A stretch of 64,000 nt of DNA from the NCBI GenBank assembly GCA_963770895.1, contig CAVYRF010000002.1, positions 5,504,001 to 5,568,000 on the forward strand, in the 5' to 3' direction. Of this stretch, positions 34,951-61,412 are shown one piece after another; position 1 is the stretch's first letter; every line of letters begins with the position of its first letter. A model generated the notes under the pieces. It saw only the letters and a list, made by a program, of their open reading frames with translations. It ran no database searches and was not told the origin of the DNA. A program made the translations under genes and the position numbers. The stretch comes from an uncultured Acidobacteriota bacterium. Lineage in GTDB: Bacteria; Acidobacteriota; Thermoanaerobaculia; Multivoradales; UBA5704.

Positions 34951-34963
34951 GGCGGGGCCGCCG

Positions 34964-36190: not shown

Positions 36191-36193
36191 CCC

Positions 36194-37417
36194 ATGGTCC
36201 TGGTCGAAAGCATCCGCCTGGCGCTGGCGGCGCTGGCCGCCAACAAGCTGCGCTCCATGCTCACCACCCTGGGGATCGTCATCGGCGTCGGCTCGGTGGT
36301 GGCGGTGGTGTCGGTGGTGCAGGGGCTGCAGCACCTGGCGAGCGACATCTTCGAGGGGGTGGGGGCGACGTACATGTTCGTGCTGCCGCTGCGCCCCGAG
36401 CAGCCGGGGGAGGCGGGCGCCCACCAGGTCAAGCTGACCTGGGACGACGGCAAGGCGGTCCAGGAGCAGGTGCCGGGGGTGCGCTACCTGACGCCGCTCA
36501 TCGCCGGCAGCGAGGAGGTCAAGTACGGCGACCGCCGGTACCGTCCCGACTTCGTGGTGGGCGCCGCCGACAACTACCAGGAGGTGATGAACCACACCGT
36601 GGACCGCGGCCGGTTCTTCTCGCTCATCGACGTCGAGGCGCAGCACAAGGTGGCGGTGGTCGGCACCCGCGTGGTGGAGCGGCTGGGCCTGGGGAGCAAC
36701 CCCATCGGCAAGCAGATCTACGTCGGCCGCTATCCGGCGACGGTGATCGGGGTGATGGAGCACAAGGGCCAGACGCTGGGGCAGGACATGGACGACTTCC
36801 TGTTCGTCCCCTTCGGCCAGGCGCTGGCCCTCTTTGGGCGCGAGGCCGGCGACCAGGCGCAGCTGCGCCTGCAGGCCGAGCGCGCCGACCTGGTCGACGA
36901 GGTGAGGGCCGGCATCGTCCGCGTGCTGCGGCGGCGCCACCATCTTGGCGCGGCGGACCCCGACGACTTCCAGATCATCGTCCAGGACGAGATCCTCAAG
37001 CAGGTGACCGGCTTCCTGTCCGGCGTCACCGCCGTGGTGGGGGGGATCGTCGCCATCTCGCTGCTGGTGGGCGGCATCGGCATCATGAACATCATGCTGG
37101 TGTCGGTGACCGAGCGCACGCGCGAGATCGGCGTGCGCAAGGCGGTCGGCGCCCGCCGCCGCGACATCCTGCTGCAGTTCCTGATCGAGGCCGTGACGCT
37201 GTCGGGCGCCGGCGGCCTGCTCGGCCTGGCGGTGGGGTACGGGTTGGGCGCGCTGGTGACCGCGGTGATCCCCGCCACGCTGCCGCCGGCGCACGTGCCG
37301 CTGTGGGCGATCGTGCTGGCGACCGGCACGTCGATGTCGATCGGCATCGCTTCTGGCATCTACCCGGCCGCCAAAGCGGCGCGGCTGGACCCCATCACCG
37401 CCCTCCATTTCGAATAG
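36194..37417 (+). CDS. MacB-like ABC transporter permease (paralog)
   Basis: Same FtsX/MacB motifs as the preceding gene. Confidence 0.94.
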   Translation: MVLVESIRLALAALAANKLRSMLTTLGIVIGVGSVVAVVSVVQGLQHLASDIFEGVGATYMFVLPLRPEQPGEAGAHQVKLTWDDGKAVQEQVPGVRYLTPLIAGSEEVKYGDRRYRPDFVVGAADNYQEVMNHTVDRGRFFSLIDVEAQHKVAVVGTRVVERLGLGSNPIGKQIYVGRYPATVIGVMEHKGQTLGQDMDDFLFVPFGQALALFGREAGDQAQLRLQAERADLVDEVRAGIVRVLRRRHHLGAADPDDFQIIVQDEILKQVTGFLSGVTAVVGGIVAISLLVGGIGIMNIMLVSVTERTREIGVRKAVGARRRDILLQFLIEAVTLSGAGGLLGLAVGYGLGALVTAVIPATLPPAHVPLWAIVLATGTSMSIGIASGIYPAAKAARLDPITALHFE

Positions 37418-37598
37418 CGCCCCAGGGGGCGTCCTGGACCGGCCGACGGCGGCCGGCAGCCAGCGGGCGGTGGAGTTGGCTCGGGCGTTGCAACGGTTCC
37501 CGGCGACCGCCGCACCTCCGGGCTCGTCTACCCAGCGGCTGATGGCCATGTGGCCAGCCGCGGGTCCGGAGGCACGCCGCGCCGGAGCCCGAGATCCT

Positions 37599-40500: not shown

Positions 40501-43500
40501 GCAGCGGCTTGAGCCTGGACCTGGGTGCCTTCTATCGCCGCATGGCGGGTGGCGTGGCGCTGGCGGCGGCCGCCGCCGCGGCGGCGGCGTTGGGGACGGT
40601 GGCGCGCGTCGGCGCGCCGGCGGCGGCGGGGGGGCGGCGGCGGGAGCGGCGCTGCCGCCGCCCGGCGCCGTGTGGGTGTGGGCGGCGCCGCTCGTGGTGC
40701 TGTGGGCGCTGGCGCCGGCGGTGGCGCGCTGGCTGAGCCTGCCGCTGCCCGGCGCGGCGGAGACGCTGCCGCTGACCGCCGCCGAGCGCCGCACGCTGCG
40801 CCTCATCGGCCGCCGCACCTGGCGCTTCTTCGAAACCTTTGTCGTCGCCGGCGACAACGCGCTGCCGCCGGACAACGTGCAGGAGGACCCGCGGCAGGTG
40901 GTGGCGCACCGCACCTCGCCGACCAACGTCGGGCTCTACCTGCTGACGGTGGTGGCGGCGCGCGATCACGGCTGGCTGGGGACCCTGGACGCGATCGACC
41001 GGCTGGAGGCGACGCTTGCCACCGTCGGCAGGCTGGTCCACTTTCGCGGCCACCTGCTCAACTGGTACGACACGCAGAGTCTGGAGCCGCTGGCGCCGCG
41101 CTATGTCTCGACGGTGGACAGCGGCAACCTGGCGGGCCACCTGCTGACCCTGGCGGAAGGCTGCTACCGGCGCGGCCGGCTGCCGGCTTTGGATCGCCAG
41201 GTTCTGGCCGGCATCGCCGATGCCGTCGACTGCCTGCGCGAAGCGGCGCCGGCCAGCGCCGGGCTGCGCACCCAGACGGTGACCCGCCGCCACCTTGACG
41301 AGGCGCTGGCCGCGGTCGAAACCGGGCTGCGGAGCGAGGGCGCCGACCTGCCCCCCACGCCCGCCACCGCCGCCGCGTGGGCGGAGCGGCTGGACCAGCT
41401 GGCCGCCAGCCTGCACGCGGTGGTGGACGTGGCAGGGGCGCTGGCGCACGAGCAGCGCGAAGGCGCCGACGCCGCCGCCTGGGGCGAGGTGCTGGCCTGG
41501 GCCGAGCTGGCCGCCGCCTGCGTCGCCAGCCACCGGCGCGACCTGGACGCCCTGGCGCAGGCGGACCCGGCGCCCGCGGCGGCTCCCGGAGCGGCGGGAG
41601 CGGTGCCCGGGGAGCCGCTGGAGGTCCCCCTGGCCGCGGCCTCGCCGCCCTCGCCGGGGCTGCCGGCGGCGGTCGTGCGGCGGCTCGAGGCGCTGGCCGA
41701 ATCCGCCCTGGCGGCCTTTGCCGCCATGGAGTTCGGGTTTCTGTACGACCCGGTGCACAAGCTCTTTGCCATCGGCTATCGCGCCGATCTGGGCGAGCTG
41801 GACGGCAACGAGTACGACCTGCTCGCTTCGGAAGCGCGCCTGGCCAGCTTCGTCGCCATCGCCAAGGGCGACGTACCGGTCGAGCACTGGTTCCACCTCG
41901 GCCGCCAGCTGACGCCGGTGGACCGCGGCGCCGCCCTCATCTCGTGGTCGGGCTCGATGTTCGAATACCTGATGCCGGCGCTGGTCATGCGCGCGCCGGC
42001 GCACAGCCTGCTCGACCAGACCTGCCGCCTGGTGGTGCGGCGGCAGATCCAGTACGGCGAGGAGCGGGGCGTCCCCTGGGGGGTGTCGGAGTCGGCGTTC
42101 AACGCCCGCGACCTGCAGCTGACCTACCAGTATTCGAACTTCGGCGTCCCCGGCCTGGGCCTCAAGCGCGGCCTGTCGGAGGACCTGGTGATCGCCCCCT
42201 ACGCCACGGCGCTGGCGGCGATCTTCGAGCCGCGCGCGGCGATCCGCAACTTCGCCCGCCTGGCGGAGGCTGGCGCCAGCGGCCGCTTCGGCTTCTACGA
42301 AGCGGTCGACTACACCGCGAGCCGCCTGCCCGAGGAGCAGAACCTGGCGGTGGTGCGCGCCTTCATGGCCCACCACCAGGGCATGTCGCTGCTCGCCCTG
42401 GCCGACGTCCTCGATCCCTGCGACGACGGCGCCCTGCCGGCACTGTTTCACGCCGCGCCGCAGGTGCAGGCGACCGAGCTGCTGCTGCAGGAGCGCACGC
42501 CGCGCGACGTGGCGGTGGCGCGACCGCGCGCCGAGGAGGTCGCCGCCGCGGCGCAGATCGGCGCCCTGCTGCCGCCCGTCGAGCGGCGCTACGATTCGCC
42601 GCACGACACGACGCCGCGCAGCCACCTGCTGGGGCACGGCCGCTACGTGGTGATGCTGACCGCCGCGGGCTCGGGGTACAGCCGCGCCGGCGACCTGGCG
42701 GTGACGCGCTACCGCGAAGACGCCACCCGCGACTGCTGGGGGACTTTCTTCTTCCTGCGCGACATGCACAGCGGCGCCGTGTGGTCGGCCGGCTACCAGC
42801 CGAGCGGCGTCCAGGCGGACCAGTACGAGGCGATCTTCGCCGAAGACCGTGCCGAGATCGTGCGCCGCGACGGCGCGATCGCCAGCCGCCTGGAGGTGGT
42901 GGTGACGCCCGAGGACGAGGGCGAGGTGCGCCGGCTGTCGCTCTCCAACCGCGGCGCCCGGCCGAGCGAGATCGAGGTCACCTCCTACGCCGAGGTGGTG
43001 CTGGCGCCGCAGGCGGCGGACGCGGCGCACCCGGCGTACTCCAACCTGTTTGTCGAGACCGAGTTCCTGGCTCCCACCGGCGCGCTCCTGGCCTGGCGGC
43101 GGCCGCGCGCCGAGGGCGAGGCGCGGCCGTGGGCGGTGCACGTCGTGGCGGTCGACGGCGACGGGGCCGCGGGGGTGCAGTTCGAAACCGACCGCGCGCG
43201 CTTCCTGGGCCGCGGGCGCGGCGTGCGCACGCCGATGTCGGTCGTCGACGGCAGGCCGCTGTCCAACACCGCGGGCGCGGTGCTCGACCCCATCTTCAGT
43301 CTGCGGCGGCGGGTGCGCCTGGCGCCGGGCGCCACCGTGCGCGTGGTGTTCGCGACGCTGGTGGCGCCGTCGCGCGAGGCCGCGGTGGCGCTGGCGGAGA
43401 AGTACCGCGATCCGGCGGGCTTCGAGCGTGCGGCGACCATGGCATGGACGCAGGCGCAGGTGCACCTGCGCCACCTGGCCATCCTGCCCGACGAGGCCAA

Positions 43501-46471
43501 CCTGTTCCAGCGCCTGGCCAACCGCCTGCTGTACTCCGACGTGTCGCTGCGCGCCCCGGCCGAGGTGCTGCAAAAAAACGCCGCCGGGGCGCCGGCGCTC
43601 TGGGCGCTGGGCATTTCGGGCGATCTGCCGATCGTCGTCGCGCGCATCGACGAGCTCGACGACCTGGGCCTGGTGCGCCAGCTGCTCAAGGCGCAGGAGT
43701 ATTTCCGCTCGAAGCGGCTGGCGGCCGATCTGGTGATCGTCAACGAGAAGGCGCCGTCCTACTCCCAGGACCTGCAGGCGGCGCTCGAAGCGCTGCTGCG
43801 CACCGCCCAGGCGCGCCACCAGCAGAGCGACACGCAGGGGCCGCACGGCGAAACCTACCTGCTGCGCAACGAGCAGATCGACGCGACGGCGCGCGGGGCG
43901 CTGCTGGCGATGGCGCGGGCGGTGCTGGTGGCGCGGCGCGGCTCGCTCGCCGAGCAGCTGGCCCGCCGCGACCGCGGCGACGAGCGCCGGCTGGTCCAGC
44001 GTTCGCGCCGGACGACCGCGGCGCCGGCGGACGAGCCGCCGCCGCGCCCCGACCTGGAGTTCTGGAACGGCCTGGGGGGCTTCCGCGCCGACGGCCGCGA
44101 GTACGTCACCATCCTGGGCGAAGGGCAGTGGACGCCGGCGCCGTGGATCAACGTCATCGCCAATCCCGGCTTCGGCTTCCAGGTGTCCGAGTCGGGCGCC
44201 GGCTACACCTGGTCGGTCAACAGCAGCCAGAACCAGCTCACCCCCTGGTCCAACGACCCGGTGAGCGACCCGCCGGGCGAGGCGCTCTACGTGCGCGACG
44301 AGGAGAGCGGCGAGGTGTGGGGGCCGACCGTGCTGCCGATCCGCGAAGAGTCGTGGCTGTACATCGCCCGTCACGGCCAGGGCTACAGCCGCTTCGAGCA
44401 CACCTCGCACGGCATCGCCCTGGACCTGCTGCAGCTGGTGCCGCTGGCCGATCCGGTCAAGATCTCGCGGCTGACCCTGACCAATCGCGGCACGCGGCCG
44501 CGCCGGCTGTCGGTCACCGCCTACGTCGAGTGGGTGCTGGGGGTGTCGCGCAGCGCTTCGGCGCCCTCGATCGTCACCGAGATGGACGGCGCGACGGGGG
44601 CGCTTCTGGCGCGCCGCGCCTGGAACGAAGAGCTGGGGGCGGGGCGCGTGGCCTTCGTCGACCTCGCCGGCCGCCAGACCGCGTGGAGCGGCGACCGCGG
44701 CGAGTTCCTGGGCCGCAACGGCACGCTCGACCATCCGGCGGCGCTGGAGGACCGGGAGCACCGGCTGTCGGGGCGGGTGGGCGCCGGGTTGGACCCGGCC
44801 GGCGTGCTGCAGACCGTCCTTGAGCTGCGCCCCGGCGAGCAGGCGGAAGTGGTGTGCCTGCTGGGGGAGTGCGCCGGCGGCGAGGCGGCGCGGCAGCTCG
44901 TCGAGCGCTACCGCAAGGCCGACGTCGAGGAGGTCCTGGCCGAGGTCGTGCGCTATTGGGACGACGTCGCCGGCGCGCTCCAGGTGGAGACGCCCGATCG
45001 TTCGCTCGACCTGCTGCTCAACCGCTGGCTGCTCTACCAGACGCTGTCGTGCCGCGTCTGGGCACGCGCCGCGTTCTACCAGGCGGGCGGCGCCTACGGC
45101 TTCCGCGACCAGCTGCAGGACGTGATGGCGCTCACCCGCGCCCGGCGCGAGGTGGCGCGCGAGCAGATCCTGCGCGCCGCGGCGCGGCAGTTCGTGCAGG
45201 GCGACGTGCAGCACTGGTGGCACCCGCCTTCCGGCCGCGGCGTGCGCACGCACATCTCGGACGACCTGTTGTGGCTGCCCTACACCGTGCTCAACTACGT
45301 CGAGGTGACCGGCGAAAAGGAGCTGTTCGACCAGCAGGTCGCCTTCCTGGACGGGCCGCCGGTGCCGCCGGACCACGACGACGCCTACTTCCAGCCCAGC
45401 GTGACCGAGGAGCGGGCGAGCCTGTTCGAGCACTGCGCCCGCGCCCTGGACCTGCGCCTGGCGGTCGGCGCGCACGGCCTGCCGCTGATGGGTACCGGCG
45501 ACTGGAACGACGGCATGAACCGGGTCGGCCGCCAGGGCAAGGGCGAAAGCGTCTGGCTGGGCTGGTTTCTGCACACCCTGCTGTGGGAGTACGCGGCGCT
45601 GGCCGACCAACGCGGCGAATCGGCGCGGGCGGACGCCTGGCGTCAGCACCGGGCGGCGCTCAAGGAGGCGCTGGAGCGGGCCTGGGACGGCGACTGGTAC
45701 CGCCGCGGCTACTTCGACGACGGCACGCCGCTGGGGTCGGCCAGCGGCGCGGAATGCAAGATCGACTCGATCGCGCAGTCTTGGGCGGTGATCTCAGGCG
45801 CCGCCCTTCGCGACCGCGCGGTGCGCGCCATGGCGGCGGTGGAAGAGTACCTGGTGCACCGCGGCGACGGCCTGGTGCTGCTGTTCACGCCGCCCTTCGA
45901 CAGCTCCGCGCTCGATCCCGGCTACATCAAGGGCTACCTGCCGGGGGTGCGCGAAAACGGCGGCCAGTACACCCACGCCGCCATCTGGTGCGTGCTCGCC
46001 TTTGCCGCCCTGGGCGACGGCGACCGCGCCGGCGAGCTGATGTCCATCCTCAATCCCATCAACCACGCCAGCACGCGCGCCGGCATCCAGCGCTACAAGG
46101 TCGAGCCCTACGTCGCCGCCGCCGACATCTACGCCCAATCCCACCACGTCGGCCGCGGCGGCTGGACCTGGTACAGCGGCTCGGCCGGCTGGATGTACCG
46201 CGCCGGCGTCGAGTGGATCCTGGGCGTGCGCATGCGCGGCACGGTGCTGTCGATCGACCCCTCCATCCCGCGCGCCTGGCCGCGCTACCAGGTCACCTTC
46301 CGCTACCACTCGGCGACCTACCACCTGCACGTCGACAACCCGCGCGGCGCCACCCGCGGCGTCACCGCCGCGGAGATGGACGGCGCCGCCCTGCCGGTGC
46401 TGCCGCACGGCGCCGCCGACGTCGCCCTGGTCAAGGACGGCACCCACCAGATCCGCATCGTCCTGGGCTGA
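37599..46471 (+). pseudogene. ndvB: Cyclic beta-1,2-glucan synthase (Cgs/ChvB/NdvB; GT84 + GH94), split by one frameshift at ~40630
   Basis: 5' frame: AEWLVDNF, GWERKRGK, TLDADT, LSHDLLEG, RWARGDWQ; 3' frame: RTSPTN, STVDSGN, SWSGSMFEY, YQAGGAYGFRDQLQD, DWNDGMN, ENGGQYTH; adding one G to the G7 tract (40628-40634) gives about 2957 aa. Confidence 0.9.
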
Positions 46472-50598: not shown

Positions 50599-52098
50599 TC
50601 AGGTGGCGGTCGGGAGGGCTGGCAGAGCTCTGCGCTCCAGGAGGTTGAGGGCGCGACGCGCCTGGTCCAGGGTCGCGGCCTCGCGCTGCGCCGCCTCGCA
50701 GAAGAGGTGGAAGGCCACCAGGGCGTCGGGCTCCACGCGCTCCGCGGTCAGGATCGTGGTCATCGCCGCGGCCAAGTCGCGCACTTCGGCGGTGCGGCCC
50801 TGGTCGAGATAGATCAGCGCGAGATCCAGGGAGACGATGGAGGCGCACACCTTCTGGCCTTGGGCCAGGCACTCCGCTCGGGCCTGCTCGAAGGCGGCGC
50901 ACGCCTCGGCCTGGCGGCCACGGCCTGCCGCGACGCGGCCACTGAGCCAAACGACGCGCATCCGGTCCGCACCGTTGTCGAGATCGAGCGCCATCTGGCG
51001 CAGGTGCGGGAGCTGCGTCTCCGCCTGGGCATAGTCGCCCAGGTGACACTGGCAGGCGCAGAAGTTGAACTCCAGAGCGAAGCGCAAGCGAGGATCGTCG
51101 CAGCTCGCGATCTGTGGTCCCGCGGCGTGCAGGACGGCAATGGCGGCGGCAGCGTCTCCGGATGCCTGCAGGGTGGACGCACGCTTGAGCAGGATCCGCC
51201 CCGAGGCGTGAGGTGGTGCCAAGGCGGCGGCGCGGTCGAGGAGATCGAGCGCCGCCTGGAATTGCCCGGCGTCGCGGCGGAGGGACGCTTCGAGATCGAA
51301 CAGGCGCCATTCTGCGAGGAGGGAGTCGCTGTTCCCGGCCCGCCAGAGGTTCCAGGCGGTGGCAAACTCGGTCCCGGCCGCAACCAGGTCGCCGGCGATC
51401 CGGCGGGCGTTGCCGACGAAGGCCCGCGCATAGCCCTGGACGCGCAGGCGCCAGGGCTCGTCGCCCGGCACGAGCCGGGCCACCGCGACGGCGAGGTGGG
51501 CCAGGTCAAGGGCCGCGGCGACGCCCTTGGGAGCCTGCCGCGCGCTTTCCTCGCATAGCCTTTCGGCAAACGCCCAGGTCTGAAGCTCGGCACCTTGCTC
51601 GACCAGCCAGAGGCGCTCCTCGGCAGTGCAGGCTGCGATCCGTTCCCAGGCGCGCGCCGCGTCCTCGCGGTCCGCTGGCGACGGTTGCCTGGGCGTGAGC
51701 GCCGCCGTCTCGGTGGTCGCGATGGCCGCCTCAAGATTGCCCAGGACCGCGTGCATTGCCTCGCGGACGGCTGCCTCCAGCGCGGCGTCGTCTGCCGCAA
51801 AATCCTGGACGATCGGTTGGTGCTTACCAGGAGGCGGGCCTGCTGCAGCGGCGTGCGCCTGCTCGCGGGCGGAGCGCAGTACGGGCAGCAGGCGGCGGAC
51901 CACCCACGAGGGGCGCAGGCCGACGGCCGTGGCGAGCTGCGCCAGGGCTTCTGGTGAGATCGGTTCCCCGGACTCATAGCGGGAGATGGACGCCTGGCCC
52001 AATCCTGCCCGTTGAGCCAGGGTGCGCTGGTCCCAGCCGCGGAGGGTGCGGAGCAGCAGCACCAGCAGCGGTCCGGCCTCATCTACATAGGAAGGCAT
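50599..52098 (-). CDS. XRE-family HTH + TPR-like repeat protein (paralog A)
   Basis: LRTLRGWDQRTLAQRAGLGQASISRYESG HTH; helical repeats with QGYARAFVGNA.R..GD, EWRLFDLEASLRRD, GRILLKRA; GGAGGT RBS. Confidence 0.88.
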   Translation of the reverse strand: MPSYVDEAGPLLVLLLRTLRGWDQRTLAQRAGLGQASISRYESGEPISPEALAQLATAVGLRPSWVVRRLLPVLRSAREQAHAAAAGPPPGKHQPIVQDFAADDAALEAAVREAMHAVLGNLEAAIATTETAALTPRQPSPADREDAARAWERIAACTAEERLWLVEQGAELQTWAFAERLCEESARQAPKGVAAALDLAHLAVAVARLVPGDEPWRLRVQGYARAFVGNARRIAGDLVAAGTEFATAWNLWRAGNSDSLLAEWRLFDLEASLRRDAGQFQAALDLLDRAAALAPPHASGRILLKRASTLQASGDAAAAIAVLHAAGPQIASCDDPRLRFALEFNFCACQCHLGDYAQAETQLPHLRQMALDLDNGADRMRVVWLSGRVAAGRGRQAEACAAFEQARAECLAQGQKVCASIVSLDLALIYLDQGRTAEVRDLAAAMTTILTAERVEPDALVAFHLFCEAAQREAATLDQARRALNLLERRALPALPTAT

Positions 52099-52126
52099 GT
52101 CACCTCCGCTTTGGATGCCATATCCG

Positions 52127-52143
52127 TAAAAAGTGTATTTTTA
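52127..52143. promoter_or_regulatory. AT-rich inverted repeat in divergent promoter region (candidate operator)
   Basis: TAAAAA-GTGTA-TTTTTA in the 137-bp gap between paralog A and the peptide gene. Confidence 0.4.
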
Positions 52144-52235
52144 ACCACTGCCATTCGTCCCGGCGGATCCCGGAGGCTCACGCGCTCGGGCCAATACCGA
52201 CCGCGAGCGCAGCGCCCCCTGAAAGGACCCCAGTC

Positions 52236-52703
52236 ATGCGCCATCCGATCTCCCGTCGCCTTGTTGTCACCGCAGCGGTGCTTGCCCTGGCCGCCTGGGG
52301 GAGCGCTCCCCGGTCGCTCCGGGCCGCCCCAGCATCCGGCTTGAGCTTGCTGGCAAGTCAGGATGCCGACTTCCTTGCCCCGTTGCGCCAGTGGCTGCGC
52401 GCGATCTGGCCCTGGAACGGCTCTGAAGCCAGGCGCGACGGCGTCCGGCACGACGCTGCTGTGGCAAAGCCACAGAACCGCTGCACCATGGACCCGGACG
52501 GCCAGTGCACCACAGACGTCAAGCCACAGAACCGCTGCGTGATCGACCCGGACGGCCAGTGCATCACAGACGTCAAGCCGCAGAACCGCTGCGGGGCCGA
52601 CCCGAACGGCGGTCAGCAGTGCACCGCCGCCGTCACGCCGCAGAACCGCTGCACCGCGGACCCGGATGGACATGGCTGCCTGAACCGAGCGGTTTCCTGG
52701 TAA
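52236..52703 (+). CDS. 155-aa exported propeptide-like protein with four Cys-DPxG-Cys repeats
   Basis: GAAAGGA RBS; signal peptide MRHPISRRLVVTAAVLALAAWG..; Trp-rich amphipathic segment LRQWLRAIWPW; repeats PQNRCTMDPDGQC, PQNRCVIDPDGQC, PQNRCGADPNGGQQC, PQNRCTADPDGHGC. Confidence 0.85.
   Translation: MRHPISRRLVVTAAVLALAAWGSAPRSLRAAPASGLSLLASQDADFLAPLRQWLRAIWPWNGSEARRDGVRHDAAVAKPQNRCTMDPDGQCTTDVKPQNRCVIDPDGQCITDVKPQNRCGADPNGGQQCTAAVTPQNRCTADPDGHGCLNRAVSW
52467..52679 (+). repeat. In-frame tandem repeat, 4 units (54, 54, 60 bp, last truncated)
   Basis: Units start at 52467, 52521, 52575, 52635; consensus AAGCCRCAGAACCGCTGC...GACCCGGACGGCCAGTGC. Confidence 0.92.
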
Positions 52704-52811
52704 GGCGGAGCGATTGGAGAAGCCTGGTTTCCTCCGCTGCGGGGACGGAGCCCTCCCTGCCATGCCTGCCGGAGCCTCGTCCAGGGTTCCGGCGTTCCGC
52801 CAGCCGGACTT

Positions 52812-55253
52812 TCACGGTAGGCTGAAGCGGGCACGGGATGAGCGATCGAGCAGACGCAAGGCCGTGCGCGCCTGCTCAATCGTGGCGACCTCGCGATTGG
52901 CTGCTTCGCAAAACAGCTTGAGACTGGCGACGGCCTCCCGCTCGACCTTTTGGGCGGCCAAGACCTTCCATATCTTCTGTGCAAGGCGGCGCACCTCGGC
53001 CAGGCGCCCCTCCTCCAGGTAGAGAATCGCCAGATCGAGAGAGACCATTGCGCTGGCGACGCCGTTGCCGCGGTCCGCGAACTGTTCGCGCACGTGGGAG
53101 AAGGCGGCGCTAGCCTCCTGCCTGTTGCCCATGCCGGCTGCCACGCGAGCTGCCAACCAAGAGACGCGTAGCACGTCCAAGTCGTTGGCCAGCTCGAGCG
53201 TAAGGTGCCGCAACCTGGGGAGCTGAGCCGACGCATCGGCAAAGGCGCCAAGATGACAGAGAACCGCAGTCAAGGTGAATTCCAGGCCGAATTGCAAGCG
53301 CAGGTCGCCGGTCTCTATCACGAGCGGAGCCGCCTCCCGCAGCGCCGCCGCGGCGGCGGTCGCGTCACCTGCCTGCTCCAGGGTAGAGCCGCGCTTGAGC
53401 AGGATGCGACCGGCCGCAGCGCGAGGAGCCGCAGCCGCCGCACGGTCGAGGAGGTCAAGCGCGACGCCGAAGTGACCCGCGTCTCGGCGCAACGACGCCT
53501 CCAGGTCCAACAAGCGCCACTCGGGGAGAATGGCCGTCGGATCGCCCGCAGCACCGGCGTGCCAGAGCCGCCTGACCATCCGCCACTGCGCGTCCGCCTG
53601 GGGCAGGCTGCCCTGGATACGCAGGGCGTTGGCCAAAAACGCCCGGGCATAGCCTTCCAGCCGGCTGCGCCAGGCATCCGAGCCGGCGGCGAGCCGAGCC
53701 ACCGTGACGGCGAGCCCTGCCAACTCCAAGGCGGTGGTGGCGCTGCGGGGCGCGGCACGCCGGCTTTCCTCCGCGAGGCGCTCGGCGAGCGCCCAGCCCC
53801 GCAACTGCAGCAAGCCCTGGACGAGCAGCCGGCGCTGGGCAGGTTTGAATCTGGCGAGGGTTTGCCACTGCCTTCCGGCCGCGGCGCGCGCGCGGGCGAT
53901 GTGGTGCGCGGCGGAGCGCGCCTGGAGGCGGAACTGGGCAAGGGTGGCGTATTCCACGCCGAGATGGGAGGCGGTCTGCCGCGCGAGGTGATCGTCGAGC
54001 GGCGCCGCGGCCGCTGGGTGTGCGGCAGCCGCAACGGTGCCGGCGGGGGAGGGGTCGAGCGCCGCGACCGTCAGCAGGGCGACGTCCACGTCGGCCGGGG
54101 TGTATCCCATCACCTCCGACGTCAGGGTCTGGAAGCGGCGCGGGGTCAAGGGGCGATGGCCGCGCTCAAACCCCGAGATATGGCTGGTATGCACGCCGGC
54201 GGCGGCCGCCAGGTCCTGCTGCGTCCAGGCGATGCGTTCGCGCAGCCAGATGAGGGCAATGCGCGCGGTGTCCCGGGAATCGGGGAGCGCATCGCCGGCG
54301 GCGGCGTCCCCTTTCCTCTCCGGGGCAGTGCCAGGGCGCGAACTTGCACTGCCGGCCGCGGAGGGAGGCAAACCGTGCCGGTCGCCGGGCGCTGAGGCAA
54401 CCGTAGGTGCGTCCAGGCCGATGGATGCGGACAGGTCGAGCAGGCACCCTTCGGACAGGACGCCGGCCGGGTCGCCCGCGGCGCCGGCGCGCCAAAGGCT
54501 CCAGGCGGTCTGCCATTCGGCGCTGGCGGCGGCAGCGTGTCCCGCGGCCTGCAGCGCGTTGGCCAGGTAGGCCCGCGCATAGCCTTGGACACGGCTGCGC
54601 CAGGCTGCGGAGCCGGCGGCGAGCCGAGCCGCGGTGACCGCCAGCTGCGCCAGGTCGAGGGCGTCGGCGGCGCCTGCGGGCGCGGTGCGCTGGCTTTGGT
54701 GGGCAAGCAGCTCGGCCAACGCCCAGCCTTGGAACTCCTCCAACCGCTCGACGAGAAGACGGCGTTGGGCCGGACTGGCGACCTGGAGCCGACGCCAGAG
54801 ACTGGCGGCCTGGGCGCGAGCCTGCGCCAGCCGATGTTCGGCGATGCGGGGCTTCAGGCGGGGAAGCGCTAGCGCGGCGACCTCGACTGCGAGGTGCGCG
54901 ATCGCTTGGCGATGGAGCCGCGCCTCCGCGGGCGGCAGTGCGGCGGGACCGGTGGCCGCCGCATCGCCTCCCGCGGGGTCGGGACCGACGGCCGCAATGG
55001 CGAGCAGGGCCAGCTCGATTTGAGCGGGGGTGTAGGCCATCGCCGCGGCCAGCTGCAGGAACCGGCGGCGGCTCAGTGGGCGATTGCCGCGCTCGTAGTC
55101 GGTGATGAGGTTCCTGACCGTACCCGCGGCCTGGGCGAGCTGGGTCTGGCTCCAGCCGAGGCGCTCGCGCAACCAGGTCAGAGCGATGGAGTCCGGTTTG
55201 GGGATCGCCCTGGGCACCCGGTCGGGTCGCGCGGGAGGCGTCATGGGTCTCAT
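52812..55253 (-). CDS. Tandem (HTH-partial TPR)-(HTH-TPR) protein (paralog B)
   Basis: Two XRE HTHs (LRERLGWSQTQLA..TDYERG; LRERIAWTQQDLA..SGFERG), each followed by W.LAE.L..S.R.AP and GYARA.LANA motifs; start could be 55244, 55253 or 55316. Confidence 0.85.
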   Translation of the reverse strand: MRPMTPPARPDRVPRAIPKPDSIALTWLRERLGWSQTQLAQAAGTVRNLITDYERGNRPLSRRRFLQLAAAMAYTPAQIELALLAIAAVGPDPAGGDAAATGPAALPPAEARLHRQAIAHLAVEVAALALPRLKPRIAEHRLAQARAQAASLWRRLQVASPAQRRLLVERLEEFQGWALAELLAHQSQRTAPAGAADALDLAQLAVTAARLAAGSAAWRSRVQGYARAYLANALQAAGHAAAASAEWQTAWSLWRAGAAGDPAGVLSEGCLLDLSASIGLDAPTVASAPGDRHGLPPSAAGSASSRPGTAPERKGDAAAGDALPDSRDTARIALIWLRERIAWTQQDLAAAAGVHTSHISGFERGHRPLTPRRFQTLTSEVMGYTPADVDVALLTVAALDPSPAGTVAAAAHPAAAAPLDDHLARQTASHLGVEYATLAQFRLQARSAAHHIARARAAAGRQWQTLARFKPAQRRLLVQGLLQLRGWALAERLAEESRRAAPRSATTALELAGLAVTVARLAAGSDAWRSRLEGYARAFLANALRIQGSLPQADAQWRMVRRLWHAGAAGDPTAILPEWRLLDLEASLRRDAGHFGVALDLLDRAAAAAPRAAAGRILLKRGSTLEQAGDATAAAAALREAAPLVIETGDLRLQFGLEFTLTAVLCHLGAFADASAQLPRLRHLTLELANDLDVLRVSWLAARVAAGMGNRQEASAAFSHVREQFADRGNGVASAMVSLDLAILYLEEGRLAEVRRLAQKIWKVLAAQKVEREAVASLKLFCEAANREVATIEQARTALRLLDRSSRARFSLP

Positions 55254-55599
55254 GGCTTGCTGAGCGAGACGACCGGGCTTTCCGTCCGATGCAAAGTATT
55301 GCCTCTCCGTAACCAATCGCTTTCAGGAAACAAATCGTCTTCGCTGCCGCGCAGATCATTCTTACGCGAACGCTCCGCTTGCGCAAGGGCGACCTTGCCC
55401 ACGAAATCAGGTGGTTTCCTACTGGATAGAAATCGTCTCTTTGCGTACCTGTCGATCGCCCCGAACCCGATCGCTTCGTCGCGGCGGGGCCGAGACGGTT
55501 ACCAACTTGCCTGGCGCTGGATACCGGGAGCTTCTTTTGTCAATTGCGCGCACGCCATTGCCAGATCGGGCAATCTCGCCAGCGAACGAGGAGGCAAAG

Positions 55600-57789
55600 A
55601 TGAGCGCCCCTGATCCCCGAAGTCCCATCGCCGGCCATCGCAGGCACGAGGACGCCGCAGCCTGCGCAGGTGAGGTGCCGCGGTATCCCTTCCTTGCCGC
55701 GGGTGCCGACGCCTTTCCTGCGAGCGGCGCCGCGCGCATGCCCGGCAAGGGCCGACCTCTGGGAATGGGCACCGGCATGGGACCTCATCGCAACCGGTCC
55801 GGTGCTGCCCCGGCCGGAGAGGTGCAGGGGCTGAGACGCCGCCATCGTCCAGCGTTGGGTCTTGCGCTTTCGACCTTGCGGTCCATCATGGGATGGTCTC
55901 AAACCGATCTTTCCCGGGTCAGCGGCGTCGCGATCAGCCAGATATCGCAATACGAATCTGGCAAGATACGTTTGACTCGGGCTCGCTTTCATCACCTCGC
56001 CGCGGTCATGGGCGCCGGCGAGGGGCTGGCCGATTGCGCGGTAACGACCTGTGCGCTGTTGTCTGCCGTAGCCACACCGGCGGACCCGGTTCCGCCAGGC
56101 GGTCTCACCTGGGACGAGCGGCGGCAGGTCAACTCGTTTGCACTAAGAATGTTGCCTGCGCTGACTGAGCTCGTTCGGGCGCAGGCCACTGCAACGATCA
56201 TCATGCAGCGCGTCGAAGAGGCGCATCAGGAAGCAGACGCACATTGGCAGGTGCTGGTGACGCTCAGCCACAGGGAGCGGCTGCAACGATTGGAAGCCGG
56301 TCTGCATCTACAAACCTGGGCGATGTGCCTGCGCCTGGGCGACGCGAGCGTTGCCGCTGCTCACAATGTCACGGAATCCATGCAGCTTGCCGAGCTTGCC
56401 GTGCGTGCGGCCCAACTGGCGCAGGGTGACGCCGGCGGGCTGCTGCGCTTGCAGGGCTACGCGCGCGCATTCCTTGCAAATGCTCATCGGTTGAGGGGAG
56501 ATCTCACGGCGGCAGATGCCGAGTTCGCTGCGGCAACGCGACAGTGGGATGAAGGTAAGCAAGTCGCGGAATTCCCGCTGCTGGAATGGCGGTTCCTCGA
56601 CTTGGAATCATCGCTCCGCCTGGCGCAAAAATTCTGGCCCGCAACCGTCGGCCTGCTCGACCGGGCCATCGCCCTTGCTCCCGCAGGGGAAACGGGCCGG
56701 CTGCTGATCAAGAAGGCGACGGCTCTACGGCTCGCCGGCCAGGTCGACGATGCGCTCGCTGCGCTGGACGCGGCGGCGCCCCTGGTCACGTCGCTGCCGG
56801 AAGCGCAGTGGATGGTGCAGTATCACCAGATTGCGTGTTTGTGCCAGACAGGGCGCTATCGACAGGCCGGTCATTTCCTGCAGAGCGCAGGCGATGCGCT
56901 TGACGGTGAGTCCACTTTGGAAATCGTCCGGCGATTGTGGCTCACAGCCCGCGTGACCGCAGGTCAGGGCGATCGGCGACAAGCGATCGCCGATTTGCAA
57001 TGGGTGCGTAGGGAACTCATGCCGTTCGCCACTTGCTACGAGTCCGCCCTGGTGTCGATCGAGCTGGCGGTTCTTTACTTCGACAGTCGGGAGTGGAGCT
57101 CGAAGATTCGTGGCTTGGTGCAAACCACCTTGGAAATAGTCAACGCACGATGGGGTTCGCGAGGTCTGACGGCCAGCCTTGGCGAGGCATGTCAGTCGCC
57201 TGAGAAGCTACGTCAGCTTCACGAAGACCTTGAGCTTTTGAGGGTCGAGAACTGGGTCTTCGAGCCCCTGACGACGGACGGCAGCGAGCGCACCGCGTAC
57301 AGCCCCCTTTCGAAACAGACCGATACCGTCTCGCTTGGCGACGAAACGAGCCTCCTGGTGCGCCTGTTGCGCGCAGTCCCTGGGTTTAGCCAGGACGCGA
57401 TGGGCGCTAGAGCGTCGATCGATCGCACTACGATCAGCCGCTACGAGAAAGGCGACATGATCCCCTCGCGGGCGCATCTCGCGCGCCTGGGCGATGCTGC
57501 CGGTATTTCACTGCCGCTTTTGGAGGGCGTGTTGCAGCCGCTGGTCCGCCTTGTGTGTGTCAAGAGGGCCTGTTCGCACAGAGCCTGGGTGCCGGCGCAC
57601 CAAGCTGATGAGGTGGCGACCGCGTTCGATCGGCAAATGGTGGCCACCCTGCGCGCAGGCGTCGCCACGTTTGCAGCAGCTCTCCGGTGCCGTCCTGCTG
57701 TGGCTGCTCAGCCTGGCCGGCCAGCGGATTTCCCGCCGCGCGATGCGCAGCAGGCGCCGGCGAAAAACGCGGGCGAGATGGCCAGATGA
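55600..57789 (+). CDS. HTH-TPR-HTH protein (paralog C)
   Basis: GAGGAGG RBS; N-terminal HTH LRSIMGWSQTDLS..SQYESG; QGYARAFLANA, EWRFLDLESSLR, GRLLIKKA; second HTH LRAVPGFSQ..ISRYEKG near the C-terminus. Confidence 0.82.
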   Translation: MSAPDPRSPIAGHRRHEDAAACAGEVPRYPFLAAGADAFPASGAARMPGKGRPLGMGTGMGPHRNRSGAAPAGEVQGLRRRHRPALGLALSTLRSIMGWSQTDLSRVSGVAISQISQYESGKIRLTRARFHHLAAVMGAGEGLADCAVTTCALLSAVATPADPVPPGGLTWDERRQVNSFALRMLPALTELVRAQATATIIMQRVEEAHQEADAHWQVLVTLSHRERLQRLEAGLHLQTWAMCLRLGDASVAAAHNVTESMQLAELAVRAAQLAQGDAGGLLRLQGYARAFLANAHRLRGDLTAADAEFAAATRQWDEGKQVAEFPLLEWRFLDLESSLRLAQKFWPATVGLLDRAIALAPAGETGRLLIKKATALRLAGQVDDALAALDAAAPLVTSLPEAQWMVQYHQIACLCQTGRYRQAGHFLQSAGDALDGESTLEIVRRLWLTARVTAGQGDRRQAIADLQWVRRELMPFATCYESALVSIELAVLYFDSREWSSKIRGLVQTTLEIVNARWGSRGLTASLGEACQSPEKLRQLHEDLELLRVENWVFEPLTTDGSERTAYSPLSKQTDTVSLGDETSLLVRLLRAVPGFSQDAMGARASIDRTTISRYEKGDMIPSRAHLARLGDAAGISLPLLEGVLQPLVRLVCVKRACSHRAWVPAHQADEVATAFDRQMVATLRAGVATFAAALRCRPAVAAQPGRPADFPPRDAQQAPAKNAGEMAR

Positions 57790-57959
57790 CACGATCTGGG
57801 TCTGCGGTGGCCGCGCCGGGTGGGGCGCGAATGCCGCTCGCATCCAGCTCCCATACAGCATAAACTTAGAGCGAAAGCCAGAACGTAAGGTGCAAGTCGG
57901 AGCAGGCCCTTTTCGGCCTGGCTTGCGGCGCTTGTGCTTTGGGAGCCCGTGCAGACGGC

Positions 57960-60900
57960 GTGAAACGTTCGCTCGCTCTCTTCGGCCGGCCGACCTGCCG
58001 CGCTGTGGCGCTCCTTGTCCACGCGGCCGGGCTTGCCGTCACCATGTCCGGATGCGGTGACGGTTCCGATCCGGCACGCGCAGTGGAATCGATCCGTACC
58101 AACTGGACAAAGGCGTTTGCCGTCGCGCGGCCGCTGGCAGGCCGGCTGGCGGGCGTCGGATATGCACCTGCGGCGCCGGTGCCAGCGGCAGGGCCTGCGG
58201 CGCCAGTGGCACCGGCGCCGCTTGCAGCAGCGACGCTACCCGCGGCGTCGCCGAGCGAAGCCACGGTCGCCGCGGAGCGGCGCACCTTTGCCGGTCTCAG
58301 CCGGTCCGCCGTGCGGACGGCACGCACACGCTCGGCCTGGGATCTGTATGCCCTGGGGCTCGCCGCGCTGGGCGTCGGCCGGGTCGATGCGGCGGTCGAT
58401 CACCTTGCCGCGGCGGCGGCGCGAATGCCCGCCAAGCCGGAACCGTGGAGCGACCTGGCGGCCGCCTACCTGGAGCGAGGCGATCGCCGGCACCTTTCGC
58501 ACGACGACCTGCTGGCTCTGGACGCGGCGGACCGGGCGCTGCAGCTTGCGCCTGGCCTGGCGCCCGCGGCCTTCAACCGGGCTGTCGCCTTGGAGCGGCT
58601 TTTCCTCCCGGCCGCCGCCGCCTGGCAAAGGTTCCTGGCTAGCGATCGCAGCTCAGGCCGGGGATGGCCAGCCGAGGCGCGCCGCCACCTGGCCGCGGCA
58701 GGCTCGCCTGAACCGATCGATGCCTGGACGATCCAGCGCCGGCGCCTGGAAGACCTGGCGGCTGCCGGCAAACCGGAGGCCCTGGCATCGTGGGCTCGAC
58801 GGGTGCCGCAGGCGGTTCGCGAGCTGGCCGAAGACGTGGAACTGCCGGCCTGGGGCGGCGCCGTGCTCGCCGGCCGCGGGGCGGACGCCGGGCGCGCGCT
58901 GGCGATCGCCAGAGCGTTGGGCGGGGCGCTCGCCGCCGGCCGTGGCGGCACCGCGGTCGCGGATTGCGTGCGCGCGATCGACCTGGCAGGCGCCGGCCCT
59001 GGGGCCAGCGCCGGGTACGACACGTCCGCCGCGGCGCCGGTGAGTCCTGGGGGCAGGAGTGCGCTGCACGACCTGGCCGCCGCCCACGCCGTCTACGGTC
59101 AGGCGCTGGCGCTGTACGCCAGCGAGCAGTTCGCCGGCGCCCAGGTGGTTTTTGACCGCGCCGCCGCGCTGTTCGTCGGCGCCGGCAGCCCGTTTGCCGG
59201 GTGGGCGCGCTTTCAGCTGGCACGCTGTGCGTTTCAGCATCTGGATTACGACCGCGCCGTGCGCCTGCTGGAGCCGCTCACCGGCGCCGGAGCCGCCGGG
59301 CGCGATGCTGCGCTGGCGGGGCGCGCGTGGGTGCTCGACGGCCTGATCGCCGCGATCGTGGGGCGGCCTTTTGACGCGCTTGCGGCTTGGCAACAGGGCC
59401 GCGAGGTGTTCACCCGGCTGGGCGAGCGGGGGAGCTTGATCTCCCTGGACGCGGGCGCTGCCGAGGTGCTGGCCTCGCTCGGACGCAGAGCCGAAAGCTG
59501 GACCTTCCTGCTGCGCGCCCTGAGCGAAACCAGCGCCGTGGACCCGGTTGCGGACCTCGGACACGCGCTCGAGCGGGCCGCCGTGGCGGCGCAGGAAGAC
59601 GGCGCCTTTGCGGCGGCGATCGATTTTCGCGACGAGCAGCTGCGCCGCGCGCTGGCGTCGGGCTCCGCCCGGCGCACCGCGGGAGCGCTGTTCGACCGCG
59701 CCATGGCCTACAGCGGCGCCGGCAACCGCCCGCTCGCGCTGCACGACATCGAGGCAGCCAGGCGGATGGCCGCCGCCATGCCGGACAGCGGCCTGCGCAC
59801 CAGCGCGACGGCCGACATCCTGTACACCGAAGGCCGCATCCGGCGCCGCTTCGACGCCGCGTCGGCGATCCCGCCCCTGGCGGAGGCGGCGCGGATCTTC
59901 GCCGCGACCGGCTATCGCTATCCCCTGGTGACCGCCCACCTGGAGCTGGGGCTCGCCACGCTCGCGCTGCGCCAGGACGATCGCGCCGAAAGCGAGCTGC
60001 AAGCCGCCGCCGCGGCGGTCGAACACCAACGCGGCGCGATCCCGGACAGCTCCACCCGCAGCACCTACCTGGGACAGATGCGCGAGGTCTACGAAGCCAT
60101 CGTCGAGCTGGAGGCCGGCCGGCGCCGGCGGCCCGAGCCGGCACTGGCGGCGAGCGAGCTGTACCGCGGCCGCACGCTCCTCGACCTGTTGCAGGGCGGC
60201 CGCTCGCGGAGGGAGCGAGGTCTGACGCTCGGTCCCTCCGTGCAGCCCGTTCCGGCGGCAGGCAACGGCGCGTTCGCCGCCTCCCAGCCGCTGGCGCCGC
60301 GCGACATCGCGGCGGCGCTGCCCGCGGGTACCGCGGGTGTCGAGTTCGCCTTCGCCCACGGTCGGCTGTTCACCTGGGTCGTCACGCCAGGGGGGTTGCG
60401 CCTCTTCGCGTCGGATCTGGGCGCTCATGCCGAGCGCCGGATCGGGGTCCTGGCACAGCGCCTGCGCGGCGAGCTACGGACGGGCCGGGTGGGTAGAGGC
60501 TCGGCCGCCGTGCTGCTCGACGACCTGCTGCTGCAACCGATCGAGCCCGCGCTGCCCGCCGGAGCACGGCTGGTGCTGGCTCCCGACGGCCCGCTGAGCG
60601 GGCTGCCGTTTGCCGCCTTGCGCGATCGTCAGGGCCGCTACCTGATCGCGCGGCACGCGCTGCTGCTGGCACCCAGCCTTTCGTACTTCGTTGCCAGCCG
60701 GCGCTCGCACCGGTCCGTTGCGGATCGGTCTGCCGGCGGCGGTTCCACCAGCGGGAGGGCGCCGCTGCGCGTCCTTGCCGTCGGCGACCCCGCCTTCGAT
60801 CCAGCCGTCTTTGGCGATCTGCCCCGCCTGCCCGGCGCAGCGGCGGAAGCGGCGGCCGTCGCCAGGCTGCTGCCGGGCTCGGTCGCCCTGGTCGGAGCGC

Positions 60901-61412
60901 AGGCGTCCGCGGCCAACCTGCTGGCCGCCGTGGACCGGTTCCCCATCCTGCACTTCGCCGGCCATGCGATCGCCAACCCGGCGGAGCCGCTGCTGTCGTA
61001 CCTGCTGCTCGCCTCCGACGCGCCGGGCGGCGCGAGCGTGCTCTATGCGCGCGACGTGCTGGATTACCGCTTCGACCGCACGCGCCTGGCCCTGCTCGCG
61101 GCCTGCCGTACGGCGGACGACCAGAGCACCTCCGGACAGGGCGTGATGGGGCTGGCCAGCGTGTTTCTGGCCGCCGGGGTGCCCGCCGTGATCGCCACCC
61201 TGTGGGACGTCGAAGACCCGTCGTCCGGCGCTCTGCTCGACCGTTTCTATCGTCGCCTGGCGCGCGGCGTCGACGCCGCGGACGCCCTGCGCGCGGCGCA
61301 GCTGGACCTGCTGGCCAGCTCCGATCCAGCCTTACGCCAACCCGCCACCTGGGCCGGCTTCGAAATTATCGGCGATCCGCCGGCCTTTCTGCCCCAACCC
61401 GTACCTTTTTGA
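57960..61412 (+). CDS. TPR + CHAT (caspase-like) domain protease
   Basis: TPRs (WSDLAAAYL, AAFNRA.ALE.L); CHAT motifs L.PDG.L..LPFAAL, LHFAGHA (His), LAACRT (Cys), G..GL...FLAAG...V.ATLW.V.D, WAGF; possible lipobox MSGC; start uncertain. Confidence 0.9.
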   Translation: MKRSLALFGRPTCRAVALLVHAAGLAVTMSGCGDGSDPARAVESIRTNWTKAFAVARPLAGRLAGVGYAPAAPVPAAGPAAPVAPAPLAAATLPAASPSEATVAAERRTFAGLSRSAVRTARTRSAWDLYALGLAALGVGRVDAAVDHLAAAAARMPAKPEPWSDLAAAYLERGDRRHLSHDDLLALDAADRALQLAPGLAPAAFNRAVALERLFLPAAAAWQRFLASDRSSGRGWPAEARRHLAAAGSPEPIDAWTIQRRRLEDLAAAGKPEALASWARRVPQAVRELAEDVELPAWGGAVLAGRGADAGRALAIARALGGALAAGRGGTAVADCVRAIDLAGAGPGASAGYDTSAAAPVSPGGRSALHDLAAAHAVYGQALALYASEQFAGAQVVFDRAAALFVGAGSPFAGWARFQLARCAFQHLDYDRAVRLLEPLTGAGAAGRDAALAGRAWVLDGLIAAIVGRPFDALAAWQQGREVFTRLGERGSLISLDAGAAEVLASLGRRAESWTFLLRALSETSAVDPVADLGHALERAAVAAQEDGAFAAAIDFRDEQLRRALASGSARRTAGALFDRAMAYSGAGNRPLALHDIEAARRMAAAMPDSGLRTSATADILYTEGRIRRRFDAASAIPPLAEAARIFAATGYRYPLVTAHLELGLATLALRQDDRAESELQAAAAAVEHQRGAIPDSSTRSTYLGQMREVYEAIVELEAGRRRRPEPALAASELYRGRTLLDLLQGGRSRRERGLTLGPSVQPVPAAGNGAFAASQPLAPRDIAAALPAGTAGVEFAFAHGRLFTWVVTPGGLRLFASDLGAHAERRIGVLAQRLRGELRTGRVGRGSAAVLLDDLLLQPIEPALPAGARLVLAPDGPLSGLPFAALRDRQGRYLIARHALLLAPSLSYFVASRRSHRSVADRSAGGGSTSGRAPLRVLAVGDPAFDPAVFGDLPRLPGAAAEAAAVARLLPGSVALVGAQASAANLLAAVDRFPILHFAGHAIANPAEPLLSYLLLASDAPGGASVLYARDVLDYRFDRTRLALLAACRTADDQSTSGQGVMGLASVFLAAGVPAVIATLWDVEDPSSGALLDRFYRRLARGVDAADALRAAQLDLLASSDPALRQPATWAGFEIIGDPPAFLPQPVPF

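Follow-up and report, generated by a model that had tools for sequence, protein, structure and literature searches.

In the RRNPP cassettes (Rap-Phr, NprR-NprX, PlcR-PapR, Rgg-SHP, PrgX and AimR-AimP), a small signal-bearing pro-peptide is encoded beside a cytoplasmic receptor of ~450-500 residues that is built of tetratricopeptide repeats (TPR). The output domain of these receptors varies, being a helix-turn-helix (HTH) domain in PlcR and a non-HTH domain in Rap, and expansions of Rap-Phr account for many copies per genome. In AimP, variable N-terminal positions are set on a conserved C-terminal G-[GA] end. In PMC10075063, peptide signalling through intracellular TPR receptors is described as a hallmark of Firmicutes and of phages and other mobile elements, and five criteria are given as its signature: a propeptide of 10-100 residues by default, Sec-dependent secretion (SignalP), a receptor of ~250-500 residues, the presence of TPRs, and genes that are direct neighbours. 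In this work we analyzed a stretch of 64,000 nucleotides (the window) from contig CAVYRF010000002.1 of an uncultured Acidobacteriota bacterium of the Thermoanaerobaculia, in particular a gene at positions 52236-52703 that encodes a protein with four Cys-bracketed loops, P0001, and the HTH-TPR genes that flank it. The assembled genome has 8.16 Mb in 3 contigs, with 70.8% GC and a completeness of 95%. Of the readings considered, the most likely, to which we give slightly less than an even chance, is that the locus is a cassette of a secreted peptide and its TPR receptor, analogous and not homologous to the RRNPP systems of Firmicutes.

The peptide gene shows the following parts, in positions of the window:
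52221-52227, + strand: ribosome-binding-site-like sequence GAAAGGA, 8 nt 5' of the ATG, kept in paralogues
52236-52703, + strand: gene for the 155-residue secreted-type Cys-loop repeat protein P0001, from the ATG at 52236 to the TGA ending at 52703
52236-52334, + strand: signal-peptide-like N-terminus, residues 1-33, seen by inspection, with a helix at residues 4-22 in the AlphaFold2 (AF2) model
52368-52415, + strand: conserved amphipathic Trp-rich helix with the pattern W-x3-W, DFLAPLRQWLRAIWPW, residues 45-60, before the first loop; AF2 helix at residues 47-57
52467-52652, + strand: 54-nt tandem DNA repeat that generates the loop units, detected by Tandem Repeats Finder
52482-52508, + strand: loop 1, CTMDPDGQC, from the translation and a genome motif search
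52536-52562, + strand: loop 2, CVIDPDGQC, the sole loop modelled as a β-hairpin (AF2, residues 100-112)
52590-52622, + strand: loop 3, CGADPNGGQQC, from the translation and a genome motif search
52650-52679, + strand: loop 4, CTADPDGHGC, from the translation and a genome motif search

This gene is real: the GC content of its third codon positions is 0.82 against 0.58 at second positions, its ribosome-binding-site-like sequence is kept, dN/dS is 0.29-0.49 among the four closest paralogues (A-D), and related cluster representatives exist. Its product starts with MRHPISRR-LVVTAAVLALAAW, in which a basic n-region (R2, R7 and R8), a 13-residue hydrophobic core and the sequence A-P-A at residues 31-33 were recognized by eye; these n-, h- and c-regions suggest that P0001 is exported by the Sec pathway. 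The Tat pathway was considered and rejected, given that the pair RR at residues 7-8 is Tat-like, yet only 66 of 153 family members have RR among their 15 N-terminal residues. The loop region comprises residues 78-148 and is followed by a 7-residue tail; its units are KPQNR-CTMDPDGQC, KPQNR-CVIDPDGQC, KPQNR-CGADPNGGQQC and TPQNR-CTADPDGHGC. The translation thus bears out the original prediction, made from the DNA letters, of four tandem variant Cys-bracketed β-turn units in a protein with a signal-like N-terminus, and the protein ends shortly after the last unit. The proposal that the units arose by DNA duplication also stands: Tandem Repeats Finder detected a period of 54 nt over 52467-52652, with 3.3 copies, 84% matches and a score of 206 (88% matches and a score of 218 for a core of 2.7 copies). 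Units 1 and 2 differ by 5 nonsynonymous and 0 synonymous changes, a count made by eye and too small for a test of diversifying selection. The AF2 model of P0001, obtained with 102 sequences, has a mean predicted local distance difference test score (pLDDT) of 62.6 and no globular fold, and contains the two helices and the single hairpin listed above.

Neither Pfam (0 families at E <= 0.01) nor NCBIfam has a family for P0001, and PADLOC gave nothing significant. A word-indexed search recovered only 5 proteins, the query among them, and a pattern search started from P0001 alone gave 230 pattern matches and no relative. A profile built from eight members, in turn, recovered 482 of 1.84 billion cluster representatives with E <= 1e-3, of which 43 reached <= 1e-10. 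The best 150 of the 482 matches have 83-274 residues, hence there are no long fused forms among those 150, and the neighbours of P0001 in the protein atlas are unnamed Acidobacteriota clusters. The source genome encodes nine family members. The genome-wide pattern search for C-x2-D-P-[DN]-G that had been proposed as a check was run as C-x2-DP[DNS]G-x1-4-C on the six-frame translation, and 19 of its 21 matches lie in seven open reading frames (ORFs) of the family. Within the same taxonomic family, 21 of 24 genomes gave matches to the peptide profile, up to 24 in a single genome; the 16 genomes taken from eleven other families of the order gave none. A sample that spanned the phylum yielded 3 positive genomes out of 301, namely the source genome, one genome of the same family and one with a weak match.

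The conserved parts were counted in 153 family members, which contain 452 loops; 152 of these proteins have a loop. The loop is repeated one to five times per protein (three times in 88 members, twice in 25 and four times in 29), and in 332 of the 452 loops it measures 9 residues from Cys to Cys. Its consensus is [DKE]-[NEA]-G-C-x-[IL]-D-P-[NDS]-G-x-C, with the core scaffold G-C-x-[IL]-D-P-x-G-x-C, in which D-P-x-G is what we take to be an idealised type-I β-turn sequence. The spacers are 4-39 residues long, variable in sequence and rich in Ala, Pro, Thr and Ser. In consequence, the conserved element of the family is the loop and not the spacer, and PQNR with its Arg is private to P0001; given that this spacer is not kept across the family, it denotes a recent repeat expansion in the P0001 copy. 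The earlier view of a constant recognition spacer combined with a variable core is therefore inverted at the family level, and the invariance claimed for PQNRC holds inside P0001 and is lost outside it, where the residue preceding the Cys is usually Gly (425 of 452 loops). Arg occupies that position in only 10 loops, 4 of which are in P0001; for this reason the cleavage after Arg that had been suggested cannot be a family rule. Of the 152 loop-bearing members, 103 have a C-terminal tail of 2 or 4 residues beyond the last loop, and in 100 of 153 a loose form of the W-helix pattern precedes the first loop by no more than 16 residues. At the variable loop positions, identity is 46% within one protein and 25% between proteins.

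The second component of the locus consists of the genes that flank the peptide gene:
50599-52098, - strand: R499, candidate receptor/regulator, a cytoplasmic HTH(XRE)-TPR protein encoded divergently to the peptide gene (Pfam HTH_3, 5.4e-10, and weak TPR matches)
52812-55316, - strand: R834, a paralogue that joins a partial HTH-TPR copy to a full one, in convergent orientation to the peptide gene (Pfam scan and paralogue comparison)
55411-57789, + strand: R792, related HTH-TPR-HTH protein with an uncertain start codon (Pfam scan and paralogue comparison)

The peptide gene is separated by 137 bp from R499 and by 108 bp from R834, which is followed by R792. All nine family members of the source genome lie ~60-235 bp from an HTH-TPR gene, and all but one (C2:505101) have such a gene on either side; the 38 HTH-TPR ORFs represent 0.79% of this genome. 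The linkage extends to other genomes. At 11 loci examined there, a peptide ORF with at least two loops was present in 10 and HTH-TPR high-scoring segment pairs (HSPs) in 11; from 20 further loci, 17 gave 21 peptide ORFs, with an HTH-TPR HSP at all 17, mostly within ~250 bp, and the other 3 had no ORF fitting the peptide pattern, one of these three being also devoid of an HTH-TPR HSP. In the relatives, a regulator is most constantly present on the convergent side, and some genomes (loci L032 and L036) carry arrays of peptide/receptor units. Peptides and regulators have also diverged together: between cassettes A and B identity is 60-65% for the peptide, 67% for the R499-type and 62% for the R834-type protein, and between A and F it is 38%, 39% and 44%, respectively. 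The idea that the units are signals or ligands gains support from this strict linkage to TPR-domain regulators.

No maturase, transporter, protease, immunity or processing gene is conserved with the peptide unit. In the window, the cassette is surrounded by HTH-TPR genes, a TPR-CHAT gene, GDSL lipases and a glucan synthase, of which the TPR genes alone show conserved linkage to the peptide. Three of the 9 cassettes, the window's, C and F, have an R792-type gene next to them, and a fourth copy, at C2:1822254, has no adjacent detected peptide. Between the R834-like and R792-like genes of cassettes C and F there is an ORF of 208-237 residues (...HVEIxLMARLL...CPEC...; C2:1904508-1905134 and C2:4272508-4273221), which the window's cassette lacks. 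To the left of cassette E1, the HTH-TPR gene (C2:493473-494864, - strand) contains a TAA in frame and is possibly a pseudogene.

R499 has 499 residues, its homologues mostly 480-530, and R834 has 834; relatives found for the adjacent regulator bear titles of metagenome-assembled genomes of Thermoanaerobaculia or Acidobacteriota. Inspection of R499 revealed no transmembrane segment or signal. Its Pfam TPR matches fall below the cut-offs (TPR_19, E 0.0013), and its homologues carry TPR_12 and TPR_MalT. The AF2 model (pLDDT 88.8) consists of the HTH domain and an α-superhelix at residues 142-491, for which the best Foldseek matches in the PDB are the peptide-binding TPR domains of LGN/Pins and Rap (E 1e-5); of the pheromone-bound Rap structures, 4gyo is at rank 6, and 8rst, 8rsu and 8rsv are also present. 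PADLOC gave matches at the level of the HTH and no membership in a defence system. Complex prediction of R499 residues 140-499 with peptide residues 30-155 gave 0.04, 0.35 and 0.17 in three runs, against a mark of 0.32 that lies above their median; we count this neither for nor against binding.

The region between R499 and the peptide gene contains one further candidate element:
52127-52146, no strand assigned: AT-rich palindromic element TAAAAAGTGTATTTTTAACC, candidate shared promoter/operator, common to cassettes A-D

The motif AAAAA-N5-TTTTT occurs 4 times in the 8.16 Mb, always at the palindrome position of cassettes A-D, and the 20-bp element has been kept in these cassettes despite a dS of 0.7-1.5. 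Paralogues A-D likewise share a block reading GGCCAAT..CCGCGAGCGGC (52190-52216), located downstream of the AT-rich element and upstream of the ribosome-binding-site-like sequence. A promoter and terminator scan of 52000-52900 returned 0 promoters and 0 terminators, and the structure predicted by RNAalifold for the 5' untranslated region of the four paralogues, which is weak (-10.2 kcal/mol, 1 compensatory pair), is not convincing.

The TPR domain has a wider distribution than the loop peptide: its profile matched all 24 genomes of the same taxonomic family and 13 of 16 genomes from other families of the order. In the five of the latter that were looked at closely, only TPR profile positions ~115-489 match. 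At 16 TPR loci of these sister families (L050-L065), the TPR proteins have 445-528 residues, and the Pfam HTH is absent in 7 of 7 scanned; their N-termini show by eye an H-x3-C-x2-C-like motif that is not called by Pfam and that presumably resembles zf-HC2. At 8 of the 16 loci, an adjacent ORF on the same strand encodes a small protein of 31-105 residues with a signal, the W-helix and the motif φ-DP[DN]G, the 31-residue form being at ~1972-2064 of L058. The Cys bracket, which was correctly noted in P0001 and is present in the family loops, proves dispensable in these relatives, since 6 of the 8 ORFs lack it; one family member of the source genome is also bracket-less and ends in ...GADPYGG. 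Four of the sister-family ORFs terminate exactly at ...IDPDG, ...VDPNGG, ...IDPNG or ...NDPDG, and a fifth (L056) terminates in ...MDPNG after two bracketed loops. The flanking genes are unrelated from locus to locus, so that the conserved unit is one of two genes, and no gene for an extracytoplasmic function sigma factor was found in the 10 flanking ORFs scanned. Given that the pair formed by a DPxG peptide and a TPR domain is stable whatever the output domain, the TPR domain is favoured as the partner of the peptide over a plain relation of regulator and target gene.

From these observations we propose, tentatively, that the pre-protein would be exported by means of its N-terminal signal, and that its C-terminal region would display, or release after proteolytic cleavage, β-turn epitopes of the form φ-D-P-[DNS]-G clamped by a putative Cys-Cys disulfide. 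Such peptides, once re-imported, may be bound by the TPR superhelix of the flanking R499 and R834, whose XRE-type HTH domains could act at the cassette promoters, for instance at the palindrome at 52127-52146, to give a regulatory output. Duplication affects whole cassettes, and their divergence is concentrated at the x positions of the loop, which may result in many private signal/receptor pairs per genome.

When this proposal is set against the five RRNPP criteria, the agreement is partial. The two genes are direct neighbours in the nine own-genome copies and in the relatives. R499 is within the receptor size range, and R834, as a duplicated form, is outside it. The TPRs of R499 are recognized from the AF2 superhelix and Foldseek, the n-, h- and c-regions with A-P-A seen by inspection and the AF2 helix at residues 4-22 are compatible with Sec export, and the sister-family forms of 31-105 residues would pass the propeptide size criterion. 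The genome also encodes two SBP_bac_5 (Opp/Dpp-type) binding proteins, which are common and hence weak evidence for peptide import.

Several results weigh against the proposal. With 155 residues, P0001 exceeds the 10-100 residues of an RRNPP propeptide. Homology to RRNPP receptors is lacking: among regulators, phmmer against the PDB matched only the HTH, Pfam and NCBIfam gave only the HTH and generic TPRs, and the top 50 Foldseek matches of R499 include no PlcR, NprR, AimR or Rgg structure. A diderm cell envelope is presumed, and no uptake path for peptides of this type is known. Since the cassettes share a nearly identical loop scaffold, specificity would have to reside in only some four variable positions. 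The 95%-complete genome has one DsbA-like gene only, and searches of it detected neither DsbB nor VKOR, so that enzymatic closure of the disulfides is only putative. In the sister families, 7 of 16 TPR loci have no adjacent ORF with signal and helix under the filters used, and that of L050 has both, with a Gly-rich tail devoid of DPxG. Finally, co-divergence and adjacency would also be expected if the regulators merely control the peptide gene. With regard to the DsbA-like gene, its single DsbA/Thioredoxin_4 domain lies in a frame of 395 residues, at C2:1046287-1046754 (- strand).

This last objection leads to the explanation that competes best with a peptide-receptor cassette, and which we nevertheless consider unlikely: P0001 may be a regulated exported effector, that is, a periplasmic, surface or extracellular product (an antimicrobial, an adhesive, or a protease-inhibitor-like chain of disulfide hairpins), whose transcription the HTH-TPR proteins would control in response to another ligand. 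Adjacency, co-duplication and the AT-rich element suit a regulator with its target gene equally well, and if the loops served as structural or binding epitopes for one shared target, strong conservation of their scaffold would be expected. In contrast, the linkage survives both the replacement of the DNA-binding HTH by another N-terminal domain and the shrinkage of the peptide to an ORF of 31-105 residues that ends at DP[DN]G, and no immunity, transporter or processing gene accompanies the unit.

Lower in probability is the alternative already named in the original prediction, a calcium- or metal-binding, or matrix-forming, repeat protein, in which Asp, Asn and the paired Cys would coordinate ions or form cross-links in the envelope. 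The loop Asp is invariant, Asn, Asp or Ser occupies the x of DPxG in 354 of 452 loops, the number of Cys is even in 123 of 153 family proteins, and with DsbB and VKOR undetected, free thiols that bind metal are conceivable. On the other hand, one acidic residue per loop is few for calcium binding, no Pfam hidden Markov model of a known Ca-binding or Cys-rich repeat (e.g. thrombospondin type 3 or EF-hand-like) matched P0001, nor did Pfam or NCBIfam identify any other known metal-binding repeat, and DPxG is kept where the Cys pair is missing, both in the sister families and in the own-genome homologue mentioned above; the strict pairing with cytoplasmic TPR proteins would also be left unexplained.

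FlgM and ExsE provide analogies for a regulator that is switched by secretion, and TPR proteins serve as secretion chaperones. A switch of this type, in which the cytoplasmic TPR protein would hold the unexported pre-protein and its export would free or change the regulator, would make re-import needless, as receptor and ligand are made in the same compartment. We judge it quite improbable, considering that a classical Sec-type signal implies rapid co-export, that tandem repeats and Cys brackets make little sense for a cytoplasmic interaction, and that no secretion apparatus is linked to the cassette. The least probable case by our estimate, and a very improbable one, is an enzymatically matured multi-core precursor of a ribosomally synthesized and post-translationally modified peptide (RiPP) of the cyanobactin or microviridin kind with maturases encoded elsewhere, the comparison with multi-core precursors being one made in the original prediction, of which the tandem core-like units and the signal stand. 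A sub-threshold match to the Cys-every-fifth RiPP CefA (NCBIfam NF038108, 12.6 bits, E 0.093) could be added in its favour. That score is far under the curated cut-off of 30 bits, maturase-type genes are neither found near the cassette nor conserved with it, a Sec-like signal heads the precursor, and cores instead of spacers are conserved across the family.

Downstream of the cassette, the window encodes a TPR-CHAT protein of 1157 residues (57939-61412, + strand; CHAT 3.4e-65), one of ~16 CHAT paralogues in the genome and the only one near a peptide cassette. The neighbouring CHAT protein, with which the original prediction would have the precursor incubated, is not linked to the peptide across cassettes, and CHAT was discarded as a family-wide processing protease, because a paralogue occurs within 10 kb at only 1 of 9 cassettes and none is near the other eight. 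At 15-20 kb from the cassette, OEP, HlyD and two MacB-type (MacB_PCD and FtsX) permease genes (30639-37417, + strand) form a set of the tripartite efflux/peptide-export type. They are followed by a giant ORF (37550-46471, + strand) of up to 2973 residues and uncertain start, with GH94 supersandwich and catalytic domains and a glucoamylase domain, which resembles cyclic β-1,2-glucan synthase. Elsewhere in the window there are an nSTAND1-WD40 gene (3505-6246), a DDE transposase with DUF4372 (6254-7423, - strand) and a WD40-only ORF (7476-9266), so that 3505-9266 may represent one STAND gene split by an insertion, or else two genes; a defence-like SIR2_2-TPR protein (12261-14231, + strand) with PADLOC matches to ThsA/SIR2-type defence models; an 889-residue fusion of a Mur-ligase domain set with alanine racemase (18421-21090, - strand); and an ORF of 1323 residues (24529-28500, - strand) with high GC at third codon positions and no Pfam family.

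A literature search, with supplements outside its scope, found no description of this peptide family or of RRNPP-type systems in Acidobacteriota. The analogy suggests that the same logic as in RRNPP was assembled from non-homologous parts in a new phylum, with a signal that is predicted to be disulfide-clamped and multiplied. Stated in full, and with somewhat less confidence than the cassette itself, this could be the first pheromone system of genetically encoded peptides and cytoplasmic TPR receptors beyond the RRNPP of Gram-positive bacteria and phages: it would be order-wide in Thermoanaerobaculia, with a β-turn φ-DP[DN]G as signal, disulfide-clamped and multiplied in one family, a TPR receptor joined to an XRE HTH or to a Cys/His N-terminus, and nine to more than 20 private channels per soil bacterium. 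If true, peptide quorum sensing would be extended to uncultured soil members of a diderm phylum, which raises the question of how peptides cross two membranes, and a natural library of minimal disulfide-clamped β-turn peptides with matched receptors would be at hand. Even if the signalling reading fails, an unnamed protein family with 482 cluster representatives has been defined, and the fact that the small ORF always adjoins a TPR regulator gives an annotation rule for hundreds of 'hypothetical' small ORFs and 'XRE/TPR' regulators.

Several known systems resemble this locus in part. Bowman-Birk and SFTI-type inhibitors have nine-residue disulfide-closed reactive loops, and the dominant loop described here also has nine residues from Cys to Cys and a Pro; this is a resemblance only, given that neither the P1 Lys/Arg-Ser-x-Pro-Pro pattern nor homology is present. 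With yeast α-factor, PatE and the microviridin precursors the family shares a signal or leader, a pro-region and tandem, nearly identical units that derive from DNA repeat expansion; unlike these multi-core precursors, it has no conserved dibasic or recognition cleavage sites ([DKE]-[NEA]-G precedes the Cys) and no maturase genes, and it is the core that is conserved. The RRNPP systems differ in being found in Firmicutes and phages and not in a presumably diderm member of the Acidobacteriota; they share no sequence homology with the proteins of this locus beyond the HTH, and P0001, with its 155 residues and four tandem Cys-bracketed loops, as well as the usual presence of two candidate receptors, one convergent and one divergent, sets the cassette apart from them. 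In both cases, nonetheless, a small signal-bearing pro-peptide is encoded beside a cytoplasmic TPR receptor of similar size, the N-terminal output domain is modular, being an HTH in some receptors and not in others, the cassettes exist as many diverging paralogues per genome (up to 24 matches here), and the motif is at or near the C-terminus of the peptide, with Rap-pheromone complexes among the best structural matches of R499. The arbitrium peptide AimP is a single linear hexapeptide, unlike the repeated and probably disulfide-closed units of 9-11 residues of P0001; as in AimP, a conserved scaffold, here D-P-x-G, combined with a few variable positions could encode the specificity of the signal.

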